Source: a virus. Taken from it: DNA of 64,000 bases. The translations under genes and the position numbers were made by a program. The stretch spans positions 2,908-66,907 of IMG/VR virus record IMGVR_UViG_3300044911_000926. One strand, 5' to 3'. Shown piece by piece: positions 4,838 to 59,178 of this stretch; the first letter of the stretch is position 1, and each line of letters begins with the position of its first letter. The notes under the pieces were generated by a model. The model was not told where the DNA came from. It saw only the letters and a program-made list of their open reading frames with translations, and did no database searches.

Positions 4838-4853
4838 GCGACCCCGGGGTCGC
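4838..4853. repeat. perfect palindrome GCGACCCCGGGGTCGC, copy 1
   Basis: exact 16-mer, 19 bp downstream of promoter-like motif 4873-4892. Confidence 0.95.
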
Positions 4854-4872
4854 ATTGAAAACCGGACACCAA

Positions 4873-4892
4873 ACGAGGGGAAACGGGGTGAA
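4873..4892 (-). promoter_or_regulatory. TTCAC-N5-TTCCCCTCGT motif
   Basis: exact copy, intergenic. Confidence 0.65.
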
Positions 4893-4899
4893 GTCGGCC

Positions 4900-5130
4900 T
4901 CAGAGCCGGTTCTTGTAGCCGATCGTCCGCGTCACGCCACGGAACCTGACTTTGTTGCCAACGATACGAAACTTGACGTGTTCAACATTCTTGATTCCCC
5001 ATCCGTATTCAACCTCGACAGTGTCTTTGTCAAGGTTGATCGACCGGACATTGCCACGTCCGTACTGCCAGTTGATACGCTTGATCGTGTCCTCAAGCTG
5101 ATCTAGGTCTATCTTTGCAGGCATTATCAA
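4900..5130 (-). CDS. hypothetical protein
   Basis: 76 aa, overlaps the upstream stop codon. Confidence 0.7.
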   Translation of the reverse strand: MIMPAKIDLDQLEDTIKRINWQYGRGNVRSINLDKDTVEVEYGWGIKNVEHVKFRIVGNKVRFRGVTRTIGYKNRL

Positions 5131-5312
5131 TCTCCAGATGGCTCCACGAGCAGGATTTCTTCGTCACACTCTACTGGAGGAGAATTGAACAAGACTTCTC
5201 CAGATTCAAGCATTTCATTGACTTTTTCCCAAGCGTCATCGCCTGATTCGGCTTCGACAGCCACCCTCTTTGTGTAGCGATCGATCCTCTCAACTGTCAC
5301 GATGTACTGCAT
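5127..5312 (-). CDS. DpnD/PcfM-like small protein
   Basis: MQYIVTVERIDRYTKRVAVEAESGDDAWEKV. Confidence 0.7.
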   Translation of the reverse strand: MQYIVTVERIDRYTKRVAVEAESGDDAWEKVNEMLESGEVLFNSPPVECDEEILLVEPSGD

Positions 5313-5321
5313 AACCAATCT

Positions 5322-5384
5322 CCAGGCTTTGAACTGGCTAGCGAAGTGCTAGGCCGCATTACACCCCGAAGGGTGTCATCTGCG
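5322..5384 (-). ncRNA. twister ribozyme (P5-type), copy 3
   Basis: CGCA GA UGA CACCC-UUCG-GGGUG UAA UGCG GC CUAGC/GCUAG CCAG UUCAAAGC CUGG; T1 pseudoknot covaries (UGA/UCA); predicted cut 5361/5360. Confidence 0.92.
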
Positions 5385-5440
5385 TTTAGTTTCGTCGCAT
5401 GATCTACTCCATAAAACGAGGAAATTGATGTCATCTGCGT

Positions 5441-5752
5441 TCAACTACCAACACCAGTCCTTCGCTCAAGGTCCATCTGCTCCCACTTGCTTCCACACTC
5501 GATGCACATGGACAACGCTACGGCATAGCGATCGTCGTCGATTCCACAAGAAGCAACGCCGAACAGGTCTGCCAACTTGTGCGCCCAGAGGATGCCGACA
5601 GGGTGATTACAGATGTCATCCGTTGCGGTGACTCCAAGGAGCCTGAGTTCATCCATTGCAAAGACAAAACTACGGACAATGCCTAGCGGGTTACATGCGT
5701 CCTGGACATCGACTGCCTCTTTTGCAAGGTGTCCAAACTTATCATCTAACAT
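5441..5752 (-). CDS. hypothetical protein
   Basis: 103 aa, GGGAG RBS; AKEAVDVQDACNPLG motif. Confidence 0.8.
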   Translation of the reverse strand: MLDDKFGHLAKEAVDVQDACNPLGIVRSFVFAMDELRLLGVTATDDICNHPVGILWAHKLADLFGVASCGIDDDRYAVALSMCIECGSKWEQMDLERRTGVGS

Positions 5753-5796
5753 GAAATCTACTCCCGAAAACGAGGAACTCGAAAAACCGACACCAA

Positions 5797-5816
5797 ACGA
5801 GGGGAAACGGCGTGAA
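5797..5816 (-). promoter_or_regulatory. TTCAC-N5-TTCCCCTCGT motif
   Basis: exact copy, intergenic. Confidence 0.65.
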
Positions 5817-5879
5817 ACCGACCTCGGACAACACGCACGCCATCCCCGACGATACCAGCCTATAAAGACCGGGTATCAT

Positions 5880-6420
5880 CAGGTTGGCGATTGCTTGACT
5901 TCAATTGCGTTGTATCAGTGACTCAGGTAACTCGGGCTTATGCTACGGCTTTTTGCTGGAATCGTCTGTGGACCCGGACGCTGGCGTGCTTTACGAGATC
6001 AACTACTCGTTCGTTGCCGGGAAAAACTCCTGATGGAGAAGCCATATTTCACCTCTGTATTCGCCTAGCCCGTCTCGGTCGTGACCGATACTCTAGGCTT
6101 CCTTGACGGTGGGATTAACACCGCTCACTATCACTTTCCGGCTCTGCTTTCTCGGGTGCTACAGCCGGTCAACCGATCCCCGAAGGCTTTGTTATCACCT
6201 AGACAACGCAATTGTCGATTACTCGATCCGTGAAACGCTTACAGCCAAGTGATTGCTCACCTGGCTGTTGGCGTAGACTGTTGTGGCGGAACCCAACGCA
6301 CAACAAGATTCGGTTGATCGTTAAGAGTGTCATGAATTGGGTTCCTTTGCCGCCTTGTCTAAGGGCGACATTAACACTCTATCTACTGTCCCGAAGGAGT
6401 CAATAGGGAAGCGATGAAAA
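5880..6420 (-). ncRNA. large structured ncRNA, ROOL-like
   Basis: ~540 nt with no credible ORF; long-range helices 5902-5913/6203-6214 (12 bp) and 6169-6176/6310-6317 cross each other (pseudoknot); many local hairpins; size and architecture recall ROOL. Confidence 0.65.
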
Positions 6421-6450
6421 TCACCGATTGACACCTTGACGATGGAACCG
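6421..6450. repeat. duplicate of the 3' end of CDS 7074-7292
   Basis: 28/30 identical to 7074-7103 (RFHRQGVNR*). Confidence 0.9.
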
Positions 6451-6753
6451 TTAGGCGTCCTTGGCTTTGGATATCGCTTCGCCGACAGCTTCCAAGACCT
6501 TCGAGTCGCTGAATGGAGCAGGTTGCCCACCAAGCATCCACTTCTGCACCAGTTCACACGCTTCCAGAAGGTCTGGCGCTGCGGCGATCAGCCTAGCGTT
6601 TGCTTGTCGCTGCTCGTTTTCATCCTTGGCTTGAGGGTGACTGTTCAGTTCTGTCGTGCTGGCAATTTGGTATCCACTTGTCGTTTGAACGTGAAATCTT
6701 GGATTGGCTCCACGTCCGAGGTGAAACATCCAAGGTCCAGGTGTGTGTCTCAT
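6451..6753 (-). CDS. conserved phage protein (HTPGPW...ANARLIAAAPDLLEA family)
   Basis: motif widespread in phage early regions. Confidence 0.85.
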   Translation of the reverse strand: MRHTPGPWMFHLGRGANPRFHVQTTSGYQIASTTELNSHPQAKDENEQRQANARLIAAAPDLLEACELVQKWMLGGQPAPFSDSKVLEAVGEAISKAKDA

Positions 6754-6792
6754 TTAGCAATACTCCAATAAAAGGGTGAAACGGACGGGAAT

Positions 6793-6981
6793 CTAGCAAC
6801 CATAGCCCTGACAGGCACCAGTGCCGTTGTCTAGGCAGTATTGGCATTCGGCATACAGGACCGACTCACCATCCTTGGTCGTCAGTTCAACCTTATCAAT
6901 GGCTGACTCAGACGATTCGGCTTCAACAGTGACAGTCTCCAAGAACCGTTCGACACGTTCGACGGTGACTTGATAACGCAT
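6793..6981 (-). CDS. DpnD/PcfM-like small protein
   Basis: MRYQVTVERVERFLETVTVEAESSESAIDKV; GGAG RBS. Confidence 0.7.
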   Translation of the reverse strand: MRYQVTVERVERFLETVTVEAESSESAIDKVELTTKDGESVLYAECQYCLDNGTGACQGYGC

Positions 6982-7008
6982 AGCGATACTCCAGTAGAGG
7001 GGTATAAA

Positions 7009-7072
7009 ACGGGCTTGCAACCGTCTGCCGTAGGGCAGGCCGCATTAACGCCCCGGAGGGCGCTGCTCTGCG
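7009..7072 (-). ncRNA. twister ribozyme (P5-type), copy 4
   Basis: CGCA GA GCA GCGCCC/GGGCGU UAA UGCG GC CUGCC/GGCAG ACGG UUGCAAGC CCGU; T1 covaries (GCA/UGC); predicted cut 7047/7046. Confidence 0.92.
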
Positions 7073-7073
7073 A

Positions 7074-7292
7074 TTACCGATTGACACCCTGACGATGGAA
7101 CCGATCGTAAAGATCGTCCCACCTCACTGACAGGAAGCTATCCAGAACTCTGGCAACGCTATCCACCACAGCTTCAGTGTCGAAGTCATCCCCAAGTCGA
7201 GACTCATGCTTGGCGTGAGACATCATCTCGCAGATCATTGCGAGTGCATTCTGTTCCCTTTCGCTGAACTGAATCTTACTGTCACCTGACAT
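7074..7292 (-). CDS. hypothetical protein
   Basis: 72 aa, TGGAGTATCGCTATG leader shared with other early genes. Confidence 0.75.
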   Translation of the reverse strand: MSGDSKIQFSEREQNALAMICEMMSHAKHESRLGDDFDTEAVVDSVARVLDSFLSVRWDDLYDRFHRQGVNR

Positions 7293-7380
7293 AGCGATAC
7301 TCCAAAAGTAGTGTACGGACTGTGGGAAAAACTACCCATTTTTATCCACAACAGCACAAAAGTAGTGTACGAACAAACAG

Positions 7381-7396
7381 GCGACCCCGGGGTCGC
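7381..7396. repeat. perfect palindrome GCGACCCCGGGGTCGC, copy 2
   Basis: exact; 10 bp downstream of promoter-like motif 7407-7426. Confidence 0.95.
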
Positions 7397-7406
7397 ATCC
7401 AACCTA

Positions 7407-7426
7407 ACGAGGGGAACGACCGTGAA
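7407..7426 (-). promoter_or_regulatory. TTCAC-N5-TTCCCCTCGT motif
   Basis: exact copy. Confidence 0.65.
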
Positions 7427-7582
7427 ATCGACCGTCTCTGGCAGCACTGGTCAATCCCATCCCCATCCCCTCCGTGACGGGTTATTCGCGACTAGGGTAA
7501 AATCTAGTCGCGAATACCTATCGCTAGACTATCCGCACGATACCCTCTACGGGGTCGAAAAACGGGTCTGCTACGCTTCCAA

Positions 7583-7602
7583 ACGAGGGGAAACGGTGTG
7601 AA
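7583..7602 (-). promoter_or_regulatory. TTCAC-N5-TTCCCCTCGT motif
   Basis: exact copy. Confidence 0.65.
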
Positions 7603-7793
7603 ACCCACCCGGATCGATCGGAAGCGTAGGCGGGGCTAATTTGGGGGCTAAGAATCGAACCCGATAGAATCGGTGGGGAGAATACTGGTGACAAGCTTGA
7701 CACCAGAACGGCGCGAAGCGTAGAGGCTTCGGGTGATAATCGATCGGGAATAGATGGGGCCGGGTTGGCCTAGGATCGATCGGAATAGAAACG

Positions 7794-7827
7794 AAAAAAC
7801 CCCATGAGGAATTGACCTCATGGGGTT
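7794..7827 (-). terminator. intrinsic terminator
   Basis: 12-bp stem AACCCCATGAGG/CCTCATGGGGTT followed by a T-run on the minus strand. Confidence 0.85.
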
Positions 7828-7853
7828 GGCGATTGTCGTTAGATTGTGGGCGA

Positions 7854-8201
7854 CTATGCGGGAAGCTTACCACGTCGCGTCGACGCTGCTATCGTGTCCG
7901 CAAGTGGAGCGTCGCGCTTGGTCGACTCTTTAACTTCCTCTTTTGCTGCTTGCGCTTCCCGCGCTTGCTTATCGGCATGCGCTGCTCGAACCTTACCTTC
8001 TAGTTCGATTGCATCCCATGCGGCATTGAAAAACGACTCCGGATCGTCCTGGATGGCGCGTATCGTTTTGATACTTATCGCGTGTTTTGCATTGGCAACC
8101 CTAACCATCGGCACGAACCTGCCATACTTATCGACGAAGCCATCGGGTGAAAACATGCCGCACGAACCGACAACCTCGGACAATTTGCGTACATTCGACA
8201 T
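7854..8201 (-). CDS. hypothetical protein
   Basis: 115 aa, GGAAGG RBS, followed by terminator. Confidence 0.65.
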   Translation of the reverse strand: MSNVRKLSEVVGSCGMFSPDGFVDKYGRFVPMVRVANAKHAISIKTIRAIQDDPESFFNAAWDAIELEGKVRAAHADKQAREAQAAKEEVKESTKRDAPLADTIAASTRRGKLPA

Positions 8202-14019: not shown

Positions 14020-14421
14020 ATGAATAGACGATTGACAGGCGGCGAAACTGAAAGGATCGCCAATGCTTACGGTGCGTTACTTGGCTTTCCGCCAGGGCTA
14101 GACAACTCGGCAACGGAAAACTGCCGAATGCTTTTGCAGGACATGCTAACCCACAACACCACCGACGGCCGCCCATGCGTCGAGCCTCCGCTAACGGACG
14201 AGGATGCCCAAAAGCGTGTGTTAGTAATGGTGCGGAATGGAGAAATGGAGCCGTGGCTAGGTCTTGGGACTCTGGCTTTTTGCTTGGACTGCACACCCCA
14301 ATACATTGTTGTTTGGCCTCAAAAAGACTGGCCTAAGAAAGGAGTATATGGGTGCTGGAGGCTTGCCCGACGTGCCACACCCGAAGAAATCGCTGCGGTA
14401 GGGCTGGAGGTGACGCAATGA
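14020..14421 (+). CDS. hypothetical protein
   Basis: GGAGAGG RBS. Confidence 0.7.
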   Translation: MNRRLTGGETERIANAYGALLGFPPGLDNSATENCRMLLQDMLTHNTTDGRPCVEPPLTDEDAQKRVLVMVRNGEMEPWLGLGTLAFCLDCTPQYIVVWPQKDWPKKGVYGCWRLARRATPEEIAAVGLEVTQ

Positions 14422-14783
14422 ACGAACAACAAACAGAACCAGTCATCTCCCAGTCATCAGCAAGAAACATGCTTGCCCTACTCAGGGAGCTAAAATTCAG
14501 GCTCATGGACGCAGAGTCGTGGGATTCGTTGATGATGTTCGAGATGCTGGACGCGATCGACGAGGCCATCGAGCAAGCCGATCCGAAGGCGACCCCGGGG
14601 TCGCTGTGGCGAATTGACTCAGAGCACAAGGAAGCCGAACCAGCAATCGACAGGGCGAAGCAGTTGAGGAGCAAGGGCTGGGCTGCTAGTGCTAAGAAGA
14701 TCGCAGGTGAGTGGCTGGTCAAGGTCAGGATCAAGAAGGCGGAGGAGGTAGCAGCAGATGATGCAGCACGAGAAGATAGTTAA
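14418..14783 (+). CDS. hypothetical protein (contains palindrome copy 3)
   Basis: GGAGG RBS, ATGA overlap. Confidence 0.7.
   Translation: MNEQQTEPVISQSSARNMLALLRELKFRLMDAESWDSLMMFEMLDAIDEAIEQADPKATPGSLWRIDSEHKEAEPAIDRAKQLRSKGWAASAKKIAGEWLVKVRIKKAEEVAADDAAREDS
14589..14604. repeat. perfect palindrome GCGACCCCGGGGTCGC, copy 3 (intragenic)
   Basis: exact 16-mer. Confidence 0.95.
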
Positions 14784-18402: not shown

Positions 18403-18866
18403 TCTTCGCAATAGACCCAGGAACATCCCAGAGCGGCTACGTCATCATCGATAACGACGTAGGCCTCATCCACGACTGCGGGGTCATAGACAACTTCAAG
18501 TTGAAACTCATGATCCGCGAGCACTTCGACCGTATTCCTACGACGGTCTTAGTAATGGAAATGATCGGATCAATGGGGATGGCAGTCGGCAAGGAAGTAT
18601 TCGAGACCTGTGTTTGGATAGGCAGGTTTATGGAGGCTTGGCCAGGAGTGACCAAGCTGGTCTATCGCAACCAGATCAAGGTTAATTTGTGCGGAACCAC
18701 CAGGGCCAAAGACGGCAACATCAGACAGGCGTTAATCGACATGTACGGCGGATCTAAAGCGATTGGAACCAAGAATGAGCCAGGGCCGCTCTACCGTGTC
18801 AAGTCGCACGCATGGTCAGCCCTGGCTGTTGCGCAGTACGCAATTGATCACTTAGCTGATCATTGA
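18399..18866 (+). CDS. ruvC: RuvC-like Holliday junction resolvase
   Basis: IFAIDPG..SGY, E in strand 4, H.WSALAVA. Confidence 0.8.
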   Translation: MIFAIDPGTSQSGYVIIDNDVGLIHDCGVIDNFKLKLMIREHFDRIPTTVLVMEMIGSMGMAVGKEVFETCVWIGRFMEAWPGVTKLVYRNQIKVNLCGTTRAKDGNIRQALIDMYGGSKAIGTKNEPGPLYRVKSHAWSALAVAQYAIDHLADH

Positions 18867-19880
18867 CTTGCGTCCTGCTAGTTTTGAGAGCCTGACGTTC
18901 TCCCAGTCAGGCATGGTCTCTGCGTTGAACTTCTTTGCCACCGAGAACAGGTTCGAGTACCTCGGCAACTGAGACGGATCGGTAATCCCGAGGATCTTAA
19001 TGCCTTTCTCGATCCAGTAGGGCCTGACCCACATCATCTTCCTGGGCTGGGTGATCCACATCTTCTTGAGGATTGGAGTCATCTTGCAGAGTCCAGCCTC
19101 GACCCTGCGACGATTCTCCATTTCGATTGCGATCTCGACGAACGTGTAGTGTTCCTCGTCACGCAGTCGGACAACTTCTTTCATGACCTTGCGTTTCTCG
19201 ATGTCCCAGACAACGTATTCCCGTTCGTTCTTCTTGATGGACATAGTCCCGTGCATCAACTGGGTAGGTTCGCCGTTCATCTTCTTGGACGACAATCCGT
19301 CCCGGATACGCTGGGACAACATGGTGGCCTCAGCCTCTGCGAAGCTCGCAATCATGGTTAGGATCACCTTGCCCATCGGAGTGTCGCTATTGAGCGAAAC
19401 GCCGTTCATATTGACGATATGGAGGGTGATCCTGTTCTCCGCGAACCAGTCGGTCATCCGGCAGAAGTCTGAGACCTTCCTCCACATCCGGTCGATCTTG
19501 TCGATGATCAGGTGGTCTCCTGGTCGGAGTTGATTGACAAGCCTTCTTCCGGCAGGGCGGTCCACAAACGGGGTTTTGCTGGCTGACATCCCCTTGCCGT
19601 CCTCGTGGAAATCACCCCAGACGACACCGTCGTCCTTCAGGTACATCTCGTAGTACCGATTTGCACGCACTTTCTGGTCTGGAATCGAGTTGTCCTTCTC
19701 GTACTGCGAGAACGAGGAGACGCGACCGTATGCGAAGGCCACAGGAGGACCCTCGCGACGGGTATTGATGGTGGGCAACGCCGTGACCTTGCGTCGTTTC
19801 ATCGGAGCGTCGTGCAACGCAGCCTCAGAAATCATCTTCTGTGCTGCTTTCGGGTCAAACAATTTATCGACGGCTATCAT
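18852..19880 (-). CDS. serine site-specific recombinase (resolvase family with C-terminal extension)
   Basis: YGRVSS..Q, G.SAS...RP, GD.LII.KIDR..R and FAEAE..MLSQRIRDG motifs. Confidence 0.9.
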   Translation of the reverse strand: MIAVDKLFDPKAAQKMISEAALHDAPMKRRKVTALPTINTRREGPPVAFAYGRVSSFSQYEKDNSIPDQKVRANRYYEMYLKDDGVVWGDFHEDGKGMSASKTPFVDRPAGRRLVNQLRPGDHLIIDKIDRMWRKVSDFCRMTDWFAENRITLHIVNMNGVSLNSDTPMGKVILTMIASFAEAEATMLSQRIRDGLSSKKMNGEPTQLMHGTMSIKKNEREYVVWDIEKRKVMKEVVRLRDEEHYTFVEIAIEMENRRRVEAGLCKMTPILKKMWITQPRKMMWVRPYWIEKGIKILGITDPSQLPRYSNLFSVAKKFNAETMPDWENVRLSKLAGRKSMIS

Positions 19881-19942: not shown

Positions 19943-20069
19943 ACAAATTTAATCAAGCGATTTTTCCTAGAAATTCCCAAGATAGTTGCACACCACTGTT
20001 CAAGTGTGTTAAATACATCTGATTCGCGAATTGAAAGTCGCGTAATGATTTGCGTAACAACCGCACACT

Positions 20070-21239
20070 TTGGGTAATCTGATGGGACTTGATGACGATT
20101 CGACGTTGAGCGGAAGCGAGTTCACCGATGCACTTGCTGCTGCGACTGCTACGGCACCTGCACCACAGGCTCCGGTCGCTGACCCTACGCCTGCTCCTTC
20201 GAGTCCTCCCCCAGTTGAGCCAGTCCAGCCTCCTCCAGCCCAGCCAGACCCTGCTCCGCCGACTCCGGACCCTGCTCCGGCACAACCGCCTCGTGCCGTC
20301 GAGCCTCCGCAGCAAAGACAGGACGATACGCTGTCGATTCTGAGGAAGTCTGCTCGCCAGATGGGCCTCGACATCGCAGACGAATCCAGTGCCGAGGAAG
20401 CCCTTTTGGTGGCGTTGCAGAACATGCACGCACTCAAGGTGGCACAGCAGCAGATGGCTGCACAGAAGCCCGTTCCAGAGCCCGCAAAGGCAGATCCGGT
20501 CAAGAAGTCGGACGAATTTGACCCAGACGCCTACTTCGGTGAGAAGTGGGGAGTCAGTTGGTCGCCGGAATACGATCAGGCGATCACGAGCGGCATCGTT
20601 ACTCAGGACCCAGCGACTGGCATGTACATTGCCAAGCCCGGGTTCGAGAGCGTTGCCAACCCGATCCTGCCCAAGATGAACGAGTCCGCTCGGGCGATCA
20701 GCCAGAAGTGGCAAGGAATCACCCGCAGCAACTTTTACAAAGACGTTTACAACGTCACCAAGGACCCGATCCTTCGAGAAGTCGATCGAATTGTCCAGCA
20801 GAGGATCGCAGAGATCCAGAGCCGGACCACAAGTCAAAACGTGGTCGAAAAGTTCGAGTCGGAGAACGCCTCGTGGATCTACACGCAAGATCCGGTCACG
20901 AAGCAGCAGGTCCCGACCCAGGATGGCGAAAGGCTCATCAGTGCCGTTCAGGCTATGTACGCCCAGGGGCTAGAGCCTAGCCAGGCGATCCAGCAGGCCT
21001 TGTTCATCACGGGCCTCAACAACCGAACAAGCAAGCAGGCAGCCCCTGCACCGGCACCTGTCGCACCAGCAGTGCCTCCACCAAGCCAGAGTCCGCAACA
21101 ATCGTTTCTGGAGAAGGCGAGGAATGCAAACGCATACTCGCCAAACGCTACTGGACCGGGTGTGGACCCGGGCCTTCAGATCAACAACGAAGCTGATCTG
21201 GATACTTTGTTCACCCGGTCTCTATTACTCTCCAGGTAA
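20070..21239 (+). CDS. putative capsid scaffolding protein
   Basis: Pro/Ala-rich disordered N-terminus; immediately upstream of the capsid gene. Confidence 0.65.
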   Translation: MGNLMGLDDDSTLSGSEFTDALAAATATAPAPQAPVADPTPAPSSPPPVEPVQPPPAQPDPAPPTPDPAPAQPPRAVEPPQQRQDDTLSILRKSARQMGLDIADESSAEEALLVALQNMHALKVAQQQMAAQKPVPEPAKADPVKKSDEFDPDAYFGEKWGVSWSPEYDQAITSGIVTQDPATGMYIAKPGFESVANPILPKMNESARAISQKWQGITRSNFYKDVYNVTKDPILREVDRIVQQRIAEIQSRTTSQNVVEKFESENASWIYTQDPVTKQQVPTQDGERLISAVQAMYAQGLEPSQAIQQALFITGLNNRTSKQAAPAPAPVAPAVPPPSQSPQQSFLEKARNANAYSPNATGPGVDPGLQINNEADLDTLFTRSLLLSR

Positions 21240-21249
21240 GGATTAAAAG

Positions 21250-22365: not shown

Positions 22366-22427
22366 GCAGGCAGGTCGGTCGATACTGACCTTTTGTTTCA
22401 AGTTCATTCAAAAGAGGAAATTTTACG

Positions 22428-23033: not shown

Positions 23034-23052
23034 TCCTGTACTCTTGACGGGT

Positions 23053-23097
23053 GAGGGGGTCTGTATCGCCAGACGGTACAGGCCCCCTCGGGGTTTT
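23053..23097 (+). terminator. terminator after the capsid operon
   Basis: 16-bp stem 23053-23068/23074-23089 then GGGGTTTT. Confidence 0.7.
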
Positions 23098-23112
23098 AAC
23101 TTAGGTTTCGAG

Positions 23113-23337: not shown

Positions 23338-23366
23338 TTTCACTTCACCAACACAGGCTGCCAACA

Positions 23367-24905: not shown

Positions 24906-24911
24906 TGTCCA

Positions 24912-34210: not shown

Positions 34211-34211
34211 T

Positions 34212-48059: not shown

Positions 48060-51000
48060 ATGGCGACAGATGATGTTATCCAGAGGATACTAAATCCAGG
48101 CGGAGTGTCGGCTGCTAGGGCTGCGTCTCGTCAGCAGGCACCCTACGTCAATGAGGAAGAAGAACGCAGTCTTATCGGCAACTTGCGTGACAAGACGCTG
48201 ACTACACTCGGTGTTATTGGGAACACTTTGTCGCTGCCGTTGTCATCGGTGATGGACGTTGCGTCCAGTGTCGTGACAGGCCAGATAAAGAACCCTTTCG
48301 ACCAGTACCTCACTCCGTTCAGCGGTGAGAATAGGACAACAGGCCAGGACCTGTTGGAGCAGACGAACATCTTTGGACCAGAGCCATCTTGGGGTAAGTC
48401 GATTGCAGGCTTCGGCCTTGAAGTCGCTGCCGATCCGCTAACGTACCTGACGCTTGGTGGATCTGCACTTGGCAAGGCTGGCCAAGCAGCCAAGAAGGCT
48501 GGGCTGCTCGACGAAGCGCAGCGAGTGACGCGACTCAAGACTGGTGCTGCTCCAGGTACGGTTGGTCCACGCCAAGCGAGACTGTCAACGAGCCTTCAGG
48601 ACATCGCTCAATACTCAACCGGAGATACTCGCAGGAGAGCACAGGACCTGCTGGACAGGCTGACGCCGGAGGAGGCTGCTGCTCCGCTCGGAGGGATGGT
48701 TGGATTCGGACTCCCGTTTGCTGCTCCGAGGATGGTCACCGGAACCGGAGCCAGAGCACAGACCGTTGCCAGAGCGATGGACACTGCTGGTCGTGCAGTC
48801 CGGTTTGGAAAGATCCCTGGCACGGACATTCAGAATCCACTCGGTGCGATCCTCGGTGCGTTCGACGCTCGATCCAAGGGTGCAAAGGAAGCCGCCGTTG
48901 CCGAGTCCACGGGAAGGCTATTTGATGAGTTGCCAAAGTCGGCAGCGGCGATCAGAGCATCGACAGCGAACCAAGCAACGTACCTTGAGGACTTGGTCAA
49001 GAACCCAAACAACCCGAGTATTCCCGCAGTCGAGGACTACCTTTCCAAAAGGCGTTCTTTCTGGGGTCCTAATGTCAAGGCTCCGGTTACGGACGAAGAA
49101 AAGTACATGGAATTGTCCGACGCGATCAGAGAGGGACAGGAGGGAATCGTCGATCTTAATGACATGCCAGAAGAACTTCGCTGGATTTCGGCACAGATGC
49201 AGTCTGAAGCCGACGCCATGCCGGGGCAGATGCGTCGGGCTGGTGGCAGGGTTTCTGAACTTGCAGACAAGAACTTATACGCAGCAAGGTACAAGTCCCA
49301 AGGTCCAAAGGCTGCATCTCCTCGCGACATCGAGGCGTCCACGTTCGATCCTTCTCAGGGATTCAGGAGGCAGGACTTCCTTCGTGACATCGATGGTGGG
49401 ACCGTTGCGTTCCGCAGGAAGATTGTCATGGACCCAGAACTGCAAAGGAAACTCGCAGACAAGGCGAACACTGTCGATGACATAGCGGAGTACCTGAGAA
49501 ACACTCACTCCGGCTGGCTGGCTGATGACTACACGAGTTTCTACCGGACAGGTAAAGACAAGGGCAAGGCATACGTCAAGAAAGGCCGATACCAGAAGAT
49601 GGCTAGGATGCTGTACGGCACCGAGCCAGAGGTGTTGAAGCGAGGGTTCTTCGGCAACAGCGTATTGTCTGACCACATGATGCGGAGGATGTCGCACGTC
49701 AAGGCAACGTCCACGCTCAAGAACATGACCGACCTGTTGTCCTCGAAGGACACGGCAGGCATGGGTCGCTACATCAAGGGCGAAGGCTCGTGGCGAAGCA
49801 GCGGTGTTAACGTCGGAGGACCTGACGACTCGACGATGAAGTTGTCGAAGTTCCTGAAGATGATGGACCTTCCTGAGTTCGCTATACACAAGGAACTCAA
49901 GACCGACACGTTGCGCAAGGGAGGCATCCTAAAGGTCTTGTCCAAGAACATGGGGATCAGCACCAAGGACTTGCGAAAGGCAAGGATAGACAAGCGGATT
50001 GCTGACGACCTGTATCGTGTACACAAGGCTGCGACAACCCGTGGTCCGATGGATGAGATCCTAGAGATGACGGACTCAGCCACGAACATGATGAAAACGT
50101 TCTCGACCACGATCCGTCCTGGGTTCCACGTCCGCAACTTGGCGTCAGGCTGGACGCAGAACGCGATGCTCGGGATGTGGGATAAGCAGTCTGCTGGCTG
50201 GTCGATGGACCTGCTGCAAGGCCGAACGATGGCTGACTCGCGGAAGATCGAGTGGGTCGGTCGAGACTACGCTCGTCGTGCTATGCAGGCAGGCTGGGGC
50301 TACGATGACATCGCAACCAAGTTGCGAGATGCAGGGTACAGCAACTCTCAGGTAGCGTCCGTTATCAAGTCTGCTAGGAGGATGGTTCCAAAGAGCAAGA
50401 GAGTTAAGCCTCTAAGGTCTGCCAGCGAGGAGTCGTTCAATCTTCCTAGTGCATCCGTTCCGGCAAAGGTCGATATAGATGGCGTTGCTAGGCCAGCAGT
50501 CGATAGCACCGGATCTCCGATTCACACCACCGAAGAAGGAGTAAGGAACTTCTGGAAGAACTTCAAGGACAGCAAGGTGGTGGATGCGGAAGGCAAGCCT
50601 CTTGTCGTTTACCACGGGACCCCAGAGTCTGGGTTCAATAAATTCTCTACAGAAAATAAGACCGTGAAGATGGATGAAGGCTTCATGGGGAAAGGCCATT
50701 ATTTTACAACAAGTCCAGATACTGCTAAGTGGTACTCAATGAAAGCAGGTATGTCTCCAGGTACATACCCTGTGTATTTGTCTGTAAAGAATCCAGTTGT
50801 GATGTCTAAGAAGCCGCTTTCTGGATCTGAGATAGTCGAATCAATACCAGATTACCCAGAGCTTCAGAAAAGAACGGAAGATCTAGCAAGCCAATACATT
50901 AACTCGTCCATAGATGCTCCGGCATCTTGGGCGTCTGTCGGTCCAAGCAAGGAACAGGAGATCTCCAGTGCATACTCGAAAGCATTTTCTGTTGCAGCAA

Positions 51001-53447
51001 AAGAACAAGGGTACGACGGGTCGGTTTTTACGTTCAGGACAGGAGAAAAGGAGGTAGTCGCTTTTGATCCAACCCAGATTAAGTCCGCAACAGGAAACAG
51101 GGGCACGTTCGATGCAGCGGAGACAGACATTCGCAGGATGCCGATGTCTCCCGATGACCTAAACAAACTCCCTGAACCTGTCGTTTCCGGTGCAACGACA
51201 GCCGATGCGTTTACTGCTCCAGAGACTGATCTATGGAAGGCAAGTAAATTCGCGAAGATTTCTGACGAGCACGCCAAGTTCAGCCAGAGGATGGACAATC
51301 TCGTCAAGATCAAGGGCATCACCAAGACCGACGCCAACCTTCTGAGATTGATGTTTGCTGGCGCAAGCCAAGAAGGCATGGCAAGGATGAACATGCCTGC
51401 GTTCAATGCCGTCAACATGATTGACAAAGGGCGTGCTGCCGGGGTCTGGATAAAGTACACAGATCTCAGGTCTGGAAAGAAGTCGTTTGAAATAAAGGTC
51501 TCAAAGAAGCGTTCTGAATCACAGTCTGGATTTAACGTTCTGCTTCACGAACTCGGCCACATGGCTCACGAGATATACAAGACTGATTTTGTGTCCAAGT
51601 ATGGCGACGACATCGAGCAGTTGTTTAAGGAGGCTGCGGACAGTGGAGTCATGAAGGAGTACATGTCTGGCATCCACGGGAAGGGCCTTGGAGATTATTT
51701 GTCAGCCACGTTCAATGAGCAATTCGCGCAGTTGTTCGCAGACTCCATCGTCCGAAGGAGAACTCCTCCGGGTGCGTTGGCAAAGATTGTCAACGGCGTC
51801 AGGGACTGGATCGTCGGATTCCTCGAAAGGCTAAAGATCACCCAACCTATTCCGAAGTCTGCGGAAAAGAGGATCGACGAGATCGTTGACGCACTGCTGG
51901 GTTACGACGGCAAGAAGTTGTCCGACCTTGCTCCTCCAACCATCATCAAAGGCTCTGCTGGCAAGAAGCCAAAGGCTGCACCACAGCCAACTCCCCAGCC
52001 GCCTACTCCCGGTCCTGTTGGTCCACCCGTCCTACAGCCACCGACTCCTCCTCCACCGAACTTCGGCAAGACCGATCCGTACTTCCCATCTCCAGGAAGC
52101 GGAGACCTTGCAGACTTGGACGATGCGTTTGCCACGAGGATCATAGGCCAACGAGCCTATGCAGACGGCGTCATAGGCTCAGTCGATGCGGACAAGGCTG
52201 CTGACGTTGCAGGTACTCCAGAGTTGTTCTCGGGCACGACGAGCGAGATCCTCGGTAGCATTCCTCGGGTTGGCAACAAGTCGATGAGTCCGACTCGTGT
52301 AGCCAAGAAGGCGTTCGGGATGGAGGAAGGCACGAACCTGAATCCTGTTAAAACACGCGGCGTTGGCGGAGCGATGACTAGCACGTTCGGTCCTGTCGCT
52401 GCCGGTGAAGAAGTCGGTGCGTTCGTTGACGGACTGACCCGCATCCAGCCCTACATCGCCTTGCTGCGTAAGGGATACGAGCCAGAGGTTGCAGCGAAGA
52501 AGGTTGTCGCTGCACAGGTGGCCTACAGCAATCGCAACTTCACTCCGTTTGAGTTGAAGTACATGCGGAGGCTGCTGCCCTTCTATAAATTTTCAAGGTC
52601 CCAGATACCGTTCCAGATGAAGCAGTTGATGGAGAAGCCCGGTGGAGCACAGGCACAACTGTTCCGAGCACTGAATCAGGCACAGTCTCAGGGTGAACTT
52701 GCTCCGGACTACGTCAGGGATACTGCGTCGATCCCAGTGTCCGAGCAGAACCCGATCCTTCAGGCGTTGATCGGAGCACCACCGGAAGGCACGGACAGGT
52801 ACATCTCCGGTCTAGGGCTGATGGCTGAGGACCTGCTGTCGGTAGGTCCTGGTGTTCGAGGTACAGGCCAGGAGTTCCTGAGCAGGCTGAATCCGTTGCT
52901 GAAAGGACCGCTGGAGTACACGACCAATCAGTCGTTCTTCCAGGCTGGACCCGAGGGAGGCAGGCCGCTCGACGAACTCGACCCGCTGATGGGACGAATA
53001 CTCGCCAATCTGAGCGGACAGAAGGATGCTGTGCAGCTTCCACAGATACTCGAAGTCGCTGCTGCCAACTCTCCGATTGCATCCTTGCTCACCACGGCTA
53101 GGACGCTGACGGACCCGAGGAAGGCTGGAGACTACGGTGCTCTCAGCGAAGCCTCGCCAGTGCCCCTTCCAGGCGTTCCTGCGCTGCTCAACACACTGAC
53201 CGGCCTCCGAGTCACGGACGTATCTCCAGGCTCCAAGGACGCGATTGTACGCGACCTACTGGAGTCCAGGATGAAGGGTGCTGGAGCCAAGGCTTTCGAG
53301 CGGGTGTACTTCTCGAAGGAGCAACTTGCACAGATGTCTCCCGAAGATCGTCAGGTAGCATTAGAGTTACAGGGCTTGGCCAACGTACTGGCCAAGAGAA
53401 CGAAAGAACGTGCAGCAGAACGTAAGAAAAACGAGGCCAACAAATGA
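48060..53447 (+). CDS. large polyvalent (ejected) protein with ADP-ribosyltransferase-like and zincin domains
   Basis: VYHGT..GKGHYFT..YLSVKNP..GYDG..EVVAFDPTQIKSATGNRGTF; LLHELGH...EQFAQ. Confidence 0.8.
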   Translation: MATDDVIQRILNPGGVSAARAASRQQAPYVNEEEERSLIGNLRDKTLTTLGVIGNTLSLPLSSVMDVASSVVTGQIKNPFDQYLTPFSGENRTTGQDLLEQTNIFGPEPSWGKSIAGFGLEVAADPLTYLTLGGSALGKAGQAAKKAGLLDEAQRVTRLKTGAAPGTVGPRQARLSTSLQDIAQYSTGDTRRRAQDLLDRLTPEEAAAPLGGMVGFGLPFAAPRMVTGTGARAQTVARAMDTAGRAVRFGKIPGTDIQNPLGAILGAFDARSKGAKEAAVAESTGRLFDELPKSAAAIRASTANQATYLEDLVKNPNNPSIPAVEDYLSKRRSFWGPNVKAPVTDEEKYMELSDAIREGQEGIVDLNDMPEELRWISAQMQSEADAMPGQMRRAGGRVSELADKNLYAARYKSQGPKAASPRDIEASTFDPSQGFRRQDFLRDIDGGTVAFRRKIVMDPELQRKLADKANTVDDIAEYLRNTHSGWLADDYTSFYRTGKDKGKAYVKKGRYQKMARMLYGTEPEVLKRGFFGNSVLSDHMMRRMSHVKATSTLKNMTDLLSSKDTAGMGRYIKGEGSWRSSGVNVGGPDDSTMKLSKFLKMMDLPEFAIHKELKTDTLRKGGILKVLSKNMGISTKDLRKARIDKRIADDLYRVHKAATTRGPMDEILEMTDSATNMMKTFSTTIRPGFHVRNLASGWTQNAMLGMWDKQSAGWSMDLLQGRTMADSRKIEWVGRDYARRAMQAGWGYDDIATKLRDAGYSNSQVASVIKSARRMVPKSKRVKPLRSASEESFNLPSASVPAKVDIDGVARPAVDSTGSPIHTTEEGVRNFWKNFKDSKVVDAEGKPLVVYHGTPESGFNKFSTENKTVKMDEGFMGKGHYFTTSPDTAKWYSMKAGMSPGTYPVYLSVKNPVVMSKKPLSGSEIVESIPDYPELQKRTEDLASQYINSSIDAPASWASVGPSKEQEISSAYSKAFSVAAKEQGYDGSVFTFRTGEKEVVAFDPTQIKSATGNRGTFDAAETDIRRMPMSPDDLNKLPEPVVSGATTADAFTAPETDLWKASKFAKISDEHAKFSQRMDNLVKIKGITKTDANLLRLMFAGASQEGMARMNMPAFNAVNMIDKGRAAGVWIKYTDLRSGKKSFEIKVSKKRSESQSGFNVLLHELGHMAHEIYKTDFVSKYGDDIEQLFKEAADSGVMKEYMSGIHGKGLGDYLSATFNEQFAQLFADSIVRRRTPPGALAKIVNGVRDWIVGFLERLKITQPIPKSAEKRIDEIVDALLGYDGKKLSDLAPPTIIKGSAGKKPKAAPQPTPQPPTPGPVGPPVLQPPTPPPPNFGKTDPYFPSPGSGDLADLDDAFATRIIGQRAYADGVIGSVDADKAADVAGTPELFSGTTSEILGSIPRVGNKSMSPTRVAKKAFGMEEGTNLNPVKTRGVGGAMTSTFGPVAAGEEVGAFVDGLTRIQPYIALLRKGYEPEVAAKKVVAAQVAYSNRNFTPFELKYMRRLLPFYKFSRSQIPFQMKQLMEKPGGAQAQLFRALNQAQSQGELAPDYVRDTASIPVSEQNPILQALIGAPPEGTDRYISGLGLMAEDLLSVGPGVRGTGQEFLSRLNPLLKGPLEYTTNQSFFQAGPEGGRPLDELDPLMGRILANLSGQKDAVQLPQILEVAAANSPIASLLTTARTLTDPRKAGDYGALSEASPVPLPGVPALLNTLTGLRVTDVSPGSKDAIVRDLLESRMKGAGAKAFERVYFSKEQLAQMSPEDRQVALELQGLANVLAKRTKERAAERKKNEANK

Positions 53448-56667: not shown

Positions 56668-56674
56668 AGTCAGT

Positions 56675-56697
56675 GCCTTTTCCGGGATAGGCTCCGG
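56675..56697 (+). other. CCGGGATAGGCTCCGG pseudoknot-like intergenic motif, copy 1
   Basis: identical 16-mer at 62570 and 63452 (minus strand). Confidence 0.6.
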
Positions 56698-56726
56698 TTT
56701 TTCAACCCTAACTACGGGAAAACATT

Positions 56727-57143
56727 GTGGCAATCGAAATTGTAACCAAGAAGGCAGTCGGATTCGGACGGCCAAAGACGGAGCACCCAGCAGTGGCTGC
56801 TTACCGGACACCAGAAGGAACGCTGCGTATGTCCATATCCATACCAGACGCTTCAGCACAGGTCGGTGGCATTAAGGAGGGAGACAGGGCAAGTTTCTTC
56901 ATCGACAAGGAAGTGACTTCGTTCGGCTTTGTCGTTCATCCAGAGGGTGCGGTCAAGGTCGTCAAGACATCCAAGGCTGGCACTACGCTTGTCATTCGTG
57001 GTGCGATCTCCAAGGAGCACGAGGAGTACGTCCTTGGGCACGCTTGGAAGTTAAACTGTTTTTCAGACAGTCAATCTGGAAGGCTTGCCAACTTCTTGGG
57101 AAGCGAAGGAACTACGGAAGTCAAGTCGAAGAAGCCGTCATGA
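56727..57143 (+). CDS. hypothetical protein (AbrB-like?)
   Basis: GTG start; ISIP....GIKEGD pattern. Confidence 0.65.
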   Translation: MAIEIVTKKAVGFGRPKTEHPAVAAYRTPEGTLRMSISIPDASAQVGGIKEGDRASFFIDKEVTSFGFVVHPEGAVKVVKTSKAGTTLVIRGAISKEHEEYVLGHAWKLNCFSDSQSGRLANFLGSEGTTEVKSKKPS

Positions 57144-57619
57144 CCAAGATCTCAGAGACACCTGAGTACCAGAAGTTATCGGTAGGCTGGCAGCGTTTTG
57201 CTTTCGGCCTATCGAGGTCTGCACTCAAGTCGATCTCTGAGATGGACCTAGACGACCAGTCGGCCTTGCTTGAGAAGTACCTCAAGATCCATGACCTAGC
57301 GGAGCGTGGCAACATGCTCCGCAGGATGTTCGGTTCGACACAGCGGAAGCCAACTCCGGGTGAAGAACAAGAGATGCTGAACGCACTTGTTAAGCGTAAG
57401 CCTCGGAAGTTCGAGACTACGCAGCAGGTGGATAACGCCTTGGCTGAGGCTCAAGGTAAGGCAGAGTTACTAATGCAATCACTCCAGAGACTTTCGATCG
57501 ACGGTCTGATTGCTAACACAGGGGCACGGCGTAAGACGATTGCACCGTGCCAGACGATTATCTCGACACTTAACTGGATGAGGATGAGGCTCAAAGATGC
57601 AAACGAACCAACGCCGTGA
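57140..57619 (+). CDS. hypothetical protein
   Basis: ATGA overlap. Confidence 0.7.
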   Translation: MTKISETPEYQKLSVGWQRFAFGLSRSALKSISEMDLDDQSALLEKYLKIHDLAERGNMLRRMFGSTQRKPTPGEEQEMLNALVKRKPRKFETTQQVDNALAEAQGKAELLMQSLQRLSIDGLIANTGARRKTIAPCQTIISTLNWMRMRLKDANEPTP

Positions 57620-57959
57620 AATTGAACTGATCTTGGTAGGTGTTGCACTTGCCAAGTCCGAGCGAGACAAGGTCATGGTGCTGGCTCCTGGCTCATTCTC
57701 CAAGGACACCGAGGAGTTGATCGATGCCATCCGGACTCAGAAGCCAGGGCCGTTTATCAAGTTCATGTCCGAACGTGGGATTGCACCCGAGAAGGGCATG
57801 GACTTTATCGAGTTGATGGTGGCCAAGATCGCAGATTACAACAAAAGGGAGAGGCTCAATATGATAGCGACTCAACTGCATAATTGCCGTGTCGCTATGG
57901 GTACAGACGAAATGGTGGAATTTTTCAAGTCAACACTCAAGCAAGTAGAGGGTATGTGA
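57597..57959 (+). CDS. hypothetical protein
   Basis: GAGG RBS. Confidence 0.7.
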   Translation: MQTNQRREIELILVGVALAKSERDKVMVLAPGSFSKDTEELIDAIRTQKPGPFIKFMSERGIAPEKGMDFIELMVAKIADYNKRERLNMIATQLHNCRVAMGTDEMVEFFKSTLKQVEGM

Positions 57960-58210
57960 TGGCTGGTAAGACTTACGATAACAGTGGAATTATCTCGAAG
58001 AACGACAGAAAGACCGAGCCTGGTCACGCAGACCAAACAGGGTCAGGCACGTTCTTAGGTGTGGAGTTCTGGATCAACGGCTGGATCAAAGAGAAAGACG
58101 GGAGGAGGTTTCTGTCGCTATCCTTTCGTCCCAAAGAACCCAGAACCCAGAGCAGCAAGCCAAGTCAAGGACCTCGTCAGGCCTACATCCCCGACGACGA
58201 ACCTTTCTAG
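57959..58210 (+). CDS. small ssDNA-binding-like protein (DUF736-like)
   Basis: NSG...KN..K...D.TG....G.EFWINGW...FLSLS; acidic DDEPF tail. Confidence 0.7.
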   Translation: MAGKTYDNSGIISKNDRKTEPGHADQTGSGTFLGVEFWINGWIKEKDGRRFLSLSFRPKEPRTQSSKPSQGPRQAYIPDDEPF

Positions 58211-58338
58211 GTGCGAGCATCGAGATTGGGTTGACGAGAGGACGGACAACTTCCCGTGCAACATACGGACAACTTGTCGTACATGCGGCAAGTTCATAGG
58301 GTACAGGCCAGATACAATTCCTAAACGCAGAGCAAGAA

Positions 58339-59178
58339 ATGAGCAGCGAGATGAAACCGATCTACTCGGTCACGGGGACGGCGGAAGTGATTGACCGCAG
58401 CGACGGTCTTGGGTTCCACGATCAGTTGCTCAACGAGTTCCACGAACTGGACCGGAAGGTGCGGGAACACGCCGCGTCTGCCCTAATCTTCTGCGATGCG
58501 TTGATGGAGATCTGTACCCGGAAACTGTACGAGGTTGACGGGTTCGCGTCCTGGCTGGACTACTGCTCGTCACGGAACATCTCCGTCCGCCACGCCCAGC
58601 GACTTGTTAATGCAGGTAAGATACGCAGGGAGATTGCTACATGCGACCCCGGGGTCGCATTGCCTACGTCCGAGAAGCATCTTCGGGCTATCTCTGCGGT
58701 TCCGGAGGGCGATCGAGCCAAGGTCGTGCTAGAGGCCCAGAAACGGGCCGCTAACGAGGGCAGAGATCCAGTCACCCGAGATTACGCAGAAGCAGCCAGG
58801 ACGCACCAGACGAAGGCTACGGCTGCCTTACCGAAGGATTCCGTAGTGGTCCCCGGAAAGGTCCAGCCAAGGCACGCCGACCAGCCCGAGGAATACTTGG
58901 ACGAGGAGGGCTATCCCGTTCCGGAGGAGTTGTGGCCGGTCTGGCGGGACATCCCGGAGTTTATGGACGTTGCGGACAAGATCCGGTCGTCCGGTGTTAT
59001 GGAGCAGGCTCGTCGTCTGGTTCAACTTGGGGTCAAACACAAGGCTCCGAGCATCATCAAGGCCGCGAACGATATTGAGCGTATGCACAACTCGATGGTG
59101 CAGTTGGCGCTGGGTTGTAAGCCAGCCCGAGTCGATGGTGACGATTGGGTAACACGAGCGGAGGCACTAGAGTCATGA
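58339..59178 (+). CDS. putative DNA-binding protein (HTH-like; LY...GF.SW.DYC family)
   Basis: RKLYEVDGFASWLDYC..NISVRHAQRLVNA...LPTSEKHLRAI; contains palindrome copy 5. Confidence 0.7.
   Translation: MSSEMKPIYSVTGTAEVIDRSDGLGFHDQLLNEFHELDRKVREHAASALIFCDALMEICTRKLYEVDGFASWLDYCSSRNISVRHAQRLVNAGKIRREIATCDPGVALPTSEKHLRAISAVPEGDRAKVVLEAQKRAANEGRDPVTRDYAEAARTHQTKATAALPKDSVVVPGKVQPRHADQPEEYLDEEGYPVPEELWPVWRDIPEFMDVADKIRSSGVMEQARRLVQLGVKHKAPSIIKAANDIERMHNSMVQLALGCKPARVDGDDWVTRAEALES
58641..58660. repeat. perfect 20-bp palindrome ATGCGACCCCGGGGTCGCAT, copy 5 (encodes CDPGVA)
   Basis: exact. Confidence 0.95.

Follow-up and report, generated by a model that had tools for sequence, protein, structure and literature searches.

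A perfectly symmetric 16-bp palindrome, GCGACCCCGGGGTCGC, is present five times in the IMG/VR virus record IMGVR_UViG_3300044911_000926 (here labeled G000), and one of these copies lies in-frame in the gene for a 279-amino-acid (aa) helix-turn-helix (HTH) protein, P0001. We think it probable that the palindrome is the cognate duplex-DNA site of P0001, bound by a symmetric homodimer, and that it acts as an operator or roadblock at gene boundaries. Three features point to a dimer on duplex DNA and not to a hairpin, namely, symmetry that is perfect through the center of the site, arms that are specific to each phage, and covariation between protein and site. Binding of the site by P0001, and the effect of that binding, are what we infer from sequence comparison. 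The window analyzed here is the whole stretch of 64,000 nucleotides (nt) that comprises bases 2908 to 66907 of the 66,907-bp record, for which CheckV gives a completeness of 100%; G000 positions below are window positions.

Five copies of one palindrome in G000

Matches to GCGACCCCGGGGTCGC with zero mismatches start at positions 4838, 7381, 14589, 31921, and 58643, in full agreement with a preliminary description of this DNA that had listed five perfect copies with an invariant core. No sixth match exists in the window at ≤2 mismatches, and the full 66,907-bp record contains the same five copies only (≤1 mismatch). Dinucleotide shuffling of the window (100 shuffles) gave an expectation of 0.01 copies, with five or more copies in 0 of 100 shuffles, which rules out a chance origin. 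At 31919 and 58641, the palindrome extends to 20 bp (ATGCGACCCCGGGGTCGCAT), again as described. The bases that follow the core are AT in four of five copies and ATTG in three of five, and conservation around the copies extends over 16 to 24 bp only (repeat search). The five sites and the two genes that carry a copy in-frame are as follows:

4838 to 4853, unstranded: site 1, a 16-bp palindrome between the minus-strand genes 4900-5124 and 4252-4809, 18 nt downstream of a repeated motif and 29 nt before the ATG of the latter gene (4809, minus strand)
7381 to 7396, unstranded: site 2, a 16-bp palindrome in the 5' leader of the minus-strand gene 7074-7292, with the repeated motif 9 nt upstream of it and the ATG of the gene (7292) 88 nt downstream
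14589 to 14604, unstranded: site 3, a 16-bp palindrome in-frame in a 121-aa gene, where it reads K-A-T-P-G-S-L
31919 to 31938, unstranded: site 4, a 20-bp perfect palindrome with a 16-bp core that starts 1 nt past the stop codon (TGA) of gene 31512-31919 and leaves 47 nt to the ATG at 31984
58641 to 58660, unstranded: site 5, ATGCGACCCCGGGGTCGCAT, read in-frame as T-C-D-P-G-V-A-L by the 279-aa gene, within the loop that follows the recognition helix
14418 to 14783, plus strand: gene hosting site 3, 121 aa, no family assignment
58339 to 59178, plus strand: P0001 gene, encoding the candidate binding protein, a 279-aa HTH protein that is the sole family member in G000

The copy reported within the coding sequence (CDS) at 14418 to 14783 is indeed in-frame. 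Another copy had been assigned to a plus-strand "secreted-protein cassette"; because gene calling and GC skew put window positions 1 to 8201 on the minus strand, sites 1 and 2 fall instead in the 5' leaders of minus-strand genes. Site 3 is unchanged in the relatives L024 and L033 (flanks 96% and 91% identical to G000), and site 4 is kept in L010 and L012 (flanks 99% and 91% identical). At comparable loci in relatives of G000, all of them very close, the copies were stable, with no presence/absence polymorphism. The 121-aa protein that hosts site 3 had no distant homologue, a single 98%-identical cluster being found, and PHROGs and Pfam searches with it gave nothing usable.

Eight 6-bp palindromes (CTCGAG, CGCGCG, CATATG, CAGCTG, ATGCAT, ACTAGT, ACGCGT, and AATATT) are absent from G000 (0 each versus 10 to 26 expected). 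Since G000 avoids palindromes, a perfect palindrome of 16 to 20 bp that is retained five times must be under selection. G005, a relative of G000 (54% portal identity) that has neither the palindrome nor a P0001-family protein, also avoids 6-bp palindromes (CCCGGG, 0 versus 23.5 expected), and this avoidance in G000 and G005 suggests heavy restriction pressure in their hosts. CGATCG is about 4-fold over-represented in both genomes.

P0001 and the in-frame palindromes of its family

The preliminary description placed the peptide CDPGVA just past the HTH of the 279-aa protein, and it occupies residues 102 to 107 of P0001, encoded at site 5 by the codons TGC GAC CCC GGG GTC GCA. Site 5 is the longest palindrome in the P0001 CDS, and its length of 20 bp was reached by 1 of 2,000 synonymous resamples. 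P0001 homologues with 44 to 56% identity retain (C/M)(D/N)PGV at this position. At the same codons, loci L176 and L177 (47 to 48% identity to P0001) carry a perfect 16-bp palindrome of their own, TGGACCCCGGGGTCCA, in which the inner 12 bp are identical to those of the G000 site and the two outermost bases of either arm differ in a symmetric, compensatory fashion. The combinations C-D..V-A, M-D..V-Q, and C-N..V-T each match what reverse-complementary codons would encode. Scans of viral contigs with TGGACCCCGGGGTCCA returned six single-copy matches, with no multicopy phage among them; GTAACCCCGGGGTTAC, the palindrome predicted for CNPGVT homologues, had one unrelated match only, in an iteron-like region.

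The family to which P0001 belongs is large, its profile matching 4,491 proteins at E ≤ 1e-3 in a library of 50%-identity representatives. The common part is the N-domain (consensus ..LYR...F..YC..RWG.SR..A.RLI.A..V..[loop]..P..E.Q.REL), which occurs alone or fused to other domains (DUF5131 in 8 of 60 members and DUF4326 in one). It is unnamed in Pfam and PHROGs, and PHROGs searches with 10 members gave only weak matches to families of unknown function. DUF3102 (PF11300) does not match P0001; it was found in 1 of 60 members (E 7e-4) and in 16% of the members of one ESM Atlas neighbor cluster. A tblastn search of family member P0036 against a cultured phage collection gave no match at E 1e-8 or 0.01, and the A7 profile gave none in five bacterial genomes.

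Within this family, the loop after the HTH reads x-P-[IM]-G-x in 38 of 148 representatives. Flanking residues were antisense compatible in 33 of these 38 loops (shuffle mean, 7.1; 33 reached in 0 of 5,000 shuffles) and the next pair outward in 20 of 38 (shuffle mean, 10.2; 0 of 5,000), with the limitation that pair shuffles overstate independence in sequences related by descent. The compatible pairs include S..D/E, E..S, T..V, V..T, A..A, G..P, L..N, and R..L. With eight differing pair types, shared descent alone is insufficient to account for the pattern.

At the DNA level, eleven IMG/VR loci from a subfamily alignment, together with G000 and L176, gave 10 distinct genes. Seven of them have a perfect loop palindrome of 12 to 20 bp that is longer than any other palindrome of the matched CDS; the seven are the sites of G000 and L176, CACCAATTGGTG, TGTTGCCAATTGGCAACA, TGGGACCAATTGGTCCCA, TGAGACCAATTGGTCTCA, and CGCCAATTGGCG. 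Synonymous resampling attained the observed length in 1, 110, 134, 26, 71, 11, and 266 of 2,000 trials for the seven genes; since codon usage was taken from the same short CDS, the control errs on the conservative side. The palindrome arms vary among members (TGTTGCC.., TGGGACC.., TGAGACC.., CACC.., and CGCC..). Centers read CCGG, AATT, CATG, or ATCG across the family in-gene sites, G000, and two further phages described below (G001 and G122), and the symmetry is perfect throughout.

A prediction was also made from peptide alone: LSPIGDK was written as the degenerate pattern TTGTCNCCNATNGGNGACAA and scanned over viral contigs. Of the 26 loci recovered, 17 were perfect 20-bp palindromes, versus about 1 in 16 expected by chance; eight loci lay in family genes, and seven of those eight were perfect. 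The earlier proposal that the protein of an operator or parS-like system has its own site built in-frame into its gene thus finds support in homologue palindromes located at the same codons. The associated expectation that the linker would be palindromic in homologues held for L176 and L177 and for most genes in both sets, and it failed in 3 of the 10 genes.

P0001 comprises an N-domain (about residues 25 to 160), a low-confidence linker (residues 164 to 181), and a conserved C-domain (residues 183 to 279; mean predicted local distance difference test [pLDDT] score of 75). It was predicted to form a homodimer with a median interaction prediction score from aligned errors (ipSAE) of 0.84, versus 0.00 for the best of three controls; among solved structures, 20 of 30 homodimers and 1 of 23 monomers attained that mark. 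Three dimer runs share ≥90% of contacts, partner pLDDT is ≥76, and the predicted interface consists of the long N-terminal helix and the C-domain. The prediction supports homodimerization of P0001, short of proof. The gene sits in a replication/recombination module with a YqaJ exonuclease and an AAA_23 ATPase, and a helicase gene lies two genes downstream. GC content is 0.51 to 0.62 across the P0001 gene, with a minimum of 0.41 about 550 bp downstream, and a repeat search of the gene found a single palindrome and no iterons.

If P0001 is the reader of the palindrome, the in-gene copy would make the site and the residues that read it inseparable by recombination, and P0001 bound to its own gene would exert negative feedback (autoregulation). 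In G000, the site would have been multiplied to four further places, three of them at gene boundaries. Sites 1 and 2, in the leaders of early minus-strand genes, would be operators downstream of the repeated motif; site 4, abutting a stop codon, would be a roadblock. The bound dimer would shut off or partition transcription, and P0001 would then be a genome-wide regulator in the manner of KorB or the stoperator repressors. KorB is a regulator with many genome-wide sites, known in RK2 as OB operators.

Copies in other genomes and competing explanations

Other family-bearing phages differ in how many copies they carry (scan thresholds, ≤3 mismatches of 18 or ≤1 of 16). The in-gene copy is the sole copy in G116 (100% complete) and its partial near-identical relatives G117 and G118, in G119 and G120, and in seven LSPIGDK-type contigs, including G127 (100% complete) and G133 (98% complete). 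G122, a complete phage unrelated to G000 (52,078 bp; 59.6% GC; terminal repeats), has 12 copies of GTCCCCAATTGGGGAC (10 perfect and 2 with one mismatch), one of which lies in its family gene at ..EEVSPIGDVGI... Eight of the 12 are outside called genes, three of those at 1 to 3 nt from a stop codon, and four are inside open reading frames (ORFs). G123 combines a 22-bp in-gene palindrome, TTTGTCCACCATGGTGGACAAA, which reads L-S-T-M-V-D-K in the family gene, with a free-standing TTTGTCTCCAATTGGAGACAAA 2.9 kb upstream; the two (positions 1142 and 4285 of L234, G123:23000-29000) have the outer arms TTTGTC/GACAAA in common and differ in their centers. In the provirus G121, two perfect 16-bp cores are free-standing, one of them as a perfect 20-mer, and the in-gene copy has decayed (I to T). 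A family member is encoded in all three near-complete (≥97%) genomes where free-standing sites were first seen. The suggestion that the palindrome would be repeated genome-wide with a phage-specific sequence was therefore borne out in G122 and, on a smaller scale, in G121 and G123, whereas the in-gene copy stands alone in most contigs. Judging from these contigs, multiplication of the in-gene site is confined to a minority of phages, G000 among them, and the multiplied sequence differs from phage to phage.

Several results weigh against P0001 as a genome-wide reader of the palindrome. The multicopy "regulon" is not the family norm, because 10 family-bearing contigs have the in-gene copy only. 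A loop palindrome of ≥12 bp is absent in 3 of the 10 genes (L196, L199, and L203), and support from synonymous resampling is modest for some members, such as L204 (266 of 2,000). Among Pfam families, P0001 gave DUF7285 alone at E ≤ 0.1 (E 0.048, below the cutoff), and it matched no PHROGs family. Structure searches returned no significant DNA-binding match: the best Foldseek match had an E value of 0.16, with weak, nonsignificant rows that include a SopB(155-272)-DNA complex (3mkw; E 0.45, TMt 0.45) and P1 ParB (1zx4/2ntz), and a VIA wide structure search reached a best Z of 7.0, all matches being generic helical ones. Binding by P0001 is putative, as is a promoter role for the repeated motif, CCGTTTCCCCTCGTT.

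One result that does not fit comes from G001 (IMGVR_UViG_3300023283_000263; loci L046 to L049), a 77,759-bp record with 69% GC, a gene transfer agent (GTA)-like tail, and its own DNA polymerase A, which has nothing in common with G000 but a helicase at 24% identity. It contains 22 unique perfect copies of the exact 16-mer of G000 plus 3 near copies (consensus, cGCGACCCCGGGGTCGCg), and no family member was detected in it (A1 profile, best E 0.32; A7 profile, nothing at E ≤ 0.01). A 354-aa protein of G001 gave a marginal family match (E 0.003) with an hhalign probability of 3.7%. By GC3 frame analysis, gene boundaries hold about 15 of the 20 copies that could be evaluated; three copies abut the ribosome-binding site GGGAGGAGG, and those inside ORFs occur in all three frames, reading RDPGVA, ATPGSR, or PRPRGR. 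In the G001 primase, the palindrome lies within an insertion relative to most of 22 homologues, which shows insertion to be one way in which copies can arise. Possible accounts of G001 are a binder that escaped detection, the use of a borrowed binder, or spread of the 16-mer as a small insertion as well.

A metagenome-assembled genome (MAG) of Opitutaceae, G006, carries a dispersed structured repeat with the hairpin GCGACCCYRGGGTCGC in 3 perfect and 7 one-mismatch copies, two of which are followed by ATTG as in G000. Its loci (L071, positions 1 to 595, and L185 to L192) contain a 255-bp tandem repeat and a dispersed family of ~100 nt with three hairpins, one of them GCGACCCYRGGGTCGC, and the repeat looks like an element of the repetitive extragenic palindromic (REP) or miniature inverted-repeat transposable element (MITE) type or a noncoding RNA family. 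Opitutaceae were dropped as a candidate host because the 16-mer was found in 1 of 101 sampled genomes of that family. Across genome contigs, the 16-mer had at least 120 matches; among the 80 listed, nearly all were single and in high-GC genomes.

Three other explanations were weighed. The same protein-site pair could be a parS-like centromere or a replication origin/initiator site, with the extra copies as loading sites, which we consider unlikely. The replication/recombination module around the P0001 gene speaks for it, a single in-gene site in most family-bearing contigs would suit a cis-acting origin or centromere, and there are precedents: ori-lambda lies within gene O and is bound by the N-terminal half of O (PMC4488673, in excerpt), N15 has the dispersed SopB centromere sites IR1-4 (PMC7205306, in excerpt), and sopC (TGGGACCACGGTCCCA) and parS (TGTTCCACGTGGAACA) have 16-bp inverted repeats (PMC3597684, in excerpt), the arms of the L197 palindrome (TGGGACC..GGTCCCA) being identical to those of sopC. 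However, Pfam searches found no ParB N-terminal domain in P0001 and no ParA among the 30 G000 proteins scanned, there is no iteron array or clearly AT-rich stretch in or beside the P0001 gene, and extra copies that lie at gene boundaries or 1 to 3 nt from stop codons in G000 and G122 fit transcription control better. Distinctly improbable, in our view, is that the extra copies, perhaps all copies, are a selfish mobile palindrome or sites of a host or co-resident factor, with only a historical link to P0001. A tiny mobile palindrome was among the earlier suggestions, and for the extra copies it is kept alive by the unrelated G001, with its predominance of copies at gene boundaries and its primase insertion, and by the Opitutaceae repeat with its trailing ATTG. 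The in-gene copy is another matter: in a family of thousands it keeps the same codon position and shows compensatory changes, so recent insertion is no explanation for it. Moreover, no transposase or REP-associated tyrosine transposase (RAYT) was recognized near the sites (a weak Zn-ribbon match at E 0.03 alone), the 16-mer is rare among the sampled Opitutaceae genomes, and the copies are stable in the close relatives of G000.

A hairpin in RNA or single-stranded DNA (terminator, attenuator, processing, or stability element) that acts independently of the HTH protein is, we believe, highly improbable. A 6- to 8-bp stem with a CCGG loop forms in four of five folded contexts, the minimum free energy (MFE) fold of the site 2 leader pairs the palindrome with its flanks, compensatory changes are a classic hallmark of structure, copies lie directly past stop codons or in leaders, and the early operon of G000 is rich in RNA devices (four twister ribozymes, including those at the ends of the site 1 and site 2 genes). 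A hairpin, though, needs neither identity nor symmetry through the would-be loop, both of which the copies in G000, G001, and G122 and the in-gene sites display; the contexts fold with unremarkable z-scores (-0.4 to -1.4), the sites have no match in Rfam, and two G000 copies and four G122 copies lie inside ORFs. None of the G000 copies is followed by a T-run, the flanks reading ATTG.., ATCC.., or TGTG... An intrinsic terminator was accordingly rejected on the U-run criterion despite the hairpin in four of five folds. A mimic of a CRISPR repeat (solitary repeat unit/Racr) seems unlikely, there being no Rfam CRISPR-DR or other match at the sites (E ≤ 5) and conservation over 16 to 24 bp only.

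We therefore return to the palindrome as a duplex-DNA site of P0001. A wider form of that reading, for and against which we find the case about equal, joins the observations in G000, G122, and G001: P0001 would belong to a "self-addressed" HTH family, in which the codons of the loop are the protein's own site. Loop residues would be forced into antisense-codon pairs (S..D, E..S, T..V, V..T, A..A, and G..P; here C-D-P-G-V-A), and new specificities would arise via coupled change of protein and site. G000 and G122 would have built regulons on this basis, and other phages, such as G001, may have adopted the site without the protein, for instance to listen to or soak up the regulator of a competitor.

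Genome context, known systems, and significance

Gene calling and GC skew divide G000 into a minus-strand block of small genes (window 1 to 8201), a plus-strand region (9633 to 62151) with early/middle genes followed by packaging/structural and then recombination/replication genes, and a second minus-strand region (62142 to the end). Recognizable genes encode a terminase, a portal, a 1795-aa polyvalent protein, a serine recombinase, the YqaJ exonuclease, the AAA_23 ATPase, and the helicase. The polyvalent protein (48060 to 53447) has an ADP-ribosyltransferase (ART) domain (PF18760, E 6e-27). The serine recombinase (342 aa; 18852 to 19880, minus strand; Resolvase domain, E 7.5e-25) may be an integrase; it was rejected as the palindrome binder, a homologue being present in the palindrome-free G005. 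A megablast search of window 20000 to 40000 against a phage collection found no cultured relative, and by this comparison G000 is far from any cultured phage. A HIP1/cyanobacterial idea was also abandoned, with 5 occurrences of GCGATCGC versus 2.9 expected under a Markov model. The early genes and motif copies that accompany sites 1 and 2 are as follows:

4252 to 4809, minus strand: early gene with site 1 in its leader, 185 aa, with a twister ribozyme (4181 to 4251) at its 3' end
7074 to 7292, minus strand: early gene with site 2 in its leader, 72 aa, with a twister ribozyme (7009 to 7072) at its 3' end
4872 to 4886, minus strand: repeated motif CCGTTTCCCCTCGTT, just upstream of site 1
7406 to 7418, minus strand: copy of the repeated motif, CGTTCCCCTCGTT, just upstream of site 2

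Four Twister-P5 ribozymes (RF02684) were found on the minus strand at 366 to 430, 4181 to 4251, 5322 to 5384, and 7009 to 7072 (42.5 to 47.5 bits versus a gathering score of 37.6), each directly 3' of a minus-strand early gene. Their presence suggests that self-cleavage splits the early polycistronic RNA into single cistrons, and two of the ribozyme-ended cistrons are those whose leaders contain sites 1 and 2. Between site 2 and the ribosome-binding site of gene 7074-7292, the leader contains a 54-bp duplication (7316 to 7369) that is absent in the near-identical L023. The minus-strand early block also contains a 60-nt intergenic repeat, ..CCCCTGTTCAGCAGCAGCGTCTAGGGG.., at 870 to 929, 1650 to 1709, 3475 to 3534, and about 2829 to 2905; it has the look of a hairpin whose loop is CAGCAGCAG, and it matched no Rfam family.

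The motif CCGTTTCCCCTCGTT occurs in minus-strand sense at 3533 to 3547, 4872 to 4886, 5796 to 5810, 7406 to 7418, 7582 to 7596, about 8255, and about 9290 and in plus-strand sense at 59417 to 59431. It is often preceded by TTCAC and followed by TGGTG and is always intergenic and oriented with transcription. Plus-strand ORFs with apparent starts at its reverse complement are inconsistent, and the motif is therefore noncoding. "Promoter-like" was the label of the preliminary description, which placed two palindrome copies 10 to 19 bp downstream of it; the proximity held (18 and 9 nt on the minus strand), and the motif may be a promoter, a terminator, or an RNA element.

Among known systems, one of the closest resemblances is to the HTH proteins ParB, SopB, and KorB, which have inverted-repeat sites of 13 to 16 bp. 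The sites described here, of 16 to 20 bp, are likewise dyad symmetric, differ from one protein to the next, and can be dispersed, with binding by the P0001 family being the inferred part of the likeness. Family arms such as TGGGACC.. and TGTTGCC.. resemble those of sopC and parS. In contrast to ParB systems, no ParB family match was found in 60 family members (E ≤ 0.001), no N-terminal CTPase domain was found in P0001, no ParA was seen among the 30 scanned proteins, and the likeness in structure is weak. The site is also encoded here by the loop of the recognition helix family-wide, an arrangement that we did not meet for ParB proteins. A parS site lies inside spo0J of Bacillus subtilis, a case on which our literature search found nothing. 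Short palindromes can also be mobile and insert in-frame, as do Rickettsia palindromic elements, REP elements, and mitochondrial GC clusters. Short GC-rich palindromes at gene boundaries and in permissive loops, as in the G001 primase and at site 3 of G000, are reminiscent of these; however, such elements are longer, imperfect, and not tied to one protein family, whereas here one copy is fixed at one codon position and covaries with thousands of homologues.

Cluster A mycobacteriophages, with repressors of the L5 gp71 type, have stoperators, many genome-wide repressor sites that lie as oriented copies in short intergenic gaps, that halt transcription elongation, and that are asymmetric and bound by a monomer via two domains (PMC9283540, in excerpt). 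The copies in G000, G122, and G001 are similarly concentrated at short gene boundaries, but they are perfect palindromes with a predicted homodimer from another protein family, and stoperators are not embedded in the codons of their own repressor. As with ori-lambda in gene O, a cis site inside the gene of its candidate binder would link site and specificity, and the G000 gene, too, lies by a helicase gene. Lambda differs in having four 19-bp iterons and an AT-rich segment, compared with one palindrome per gene and no iteron array here, and some of the phages described here carry extra copies far from the gene. A cis site in the gene of its binder, many-site regulators, and dispersed centromeres are thus each known separately. 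Literature searches (without supplementary files) returned no description of this family or of its in-frame palindrome, nor did we find in the literature searched any family in which the codons of the recognition loop are the site throughout, with antisense-codon covariation.

If P0001 binds its in-gene palindrome, a function could be assigned to thousands of unannotated phage genes, and the DNA target of each would be predictable from its own sequence. In the multicopy cases, G000 and G122, phages would have regulators or roadblock systems of a new, genome-wide kind, and the occurrence of the same site in G001, without such a protein, hints at cross-talk between unrelated phages. The protein-site pairs could serve as orthogonal repressor-operator parts. 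Were the reading correct, a binding site would constrain the amino acids of its own reader via antisense codons, and the family would offer a clean system for studying the evolution of protein-DNA specificity.

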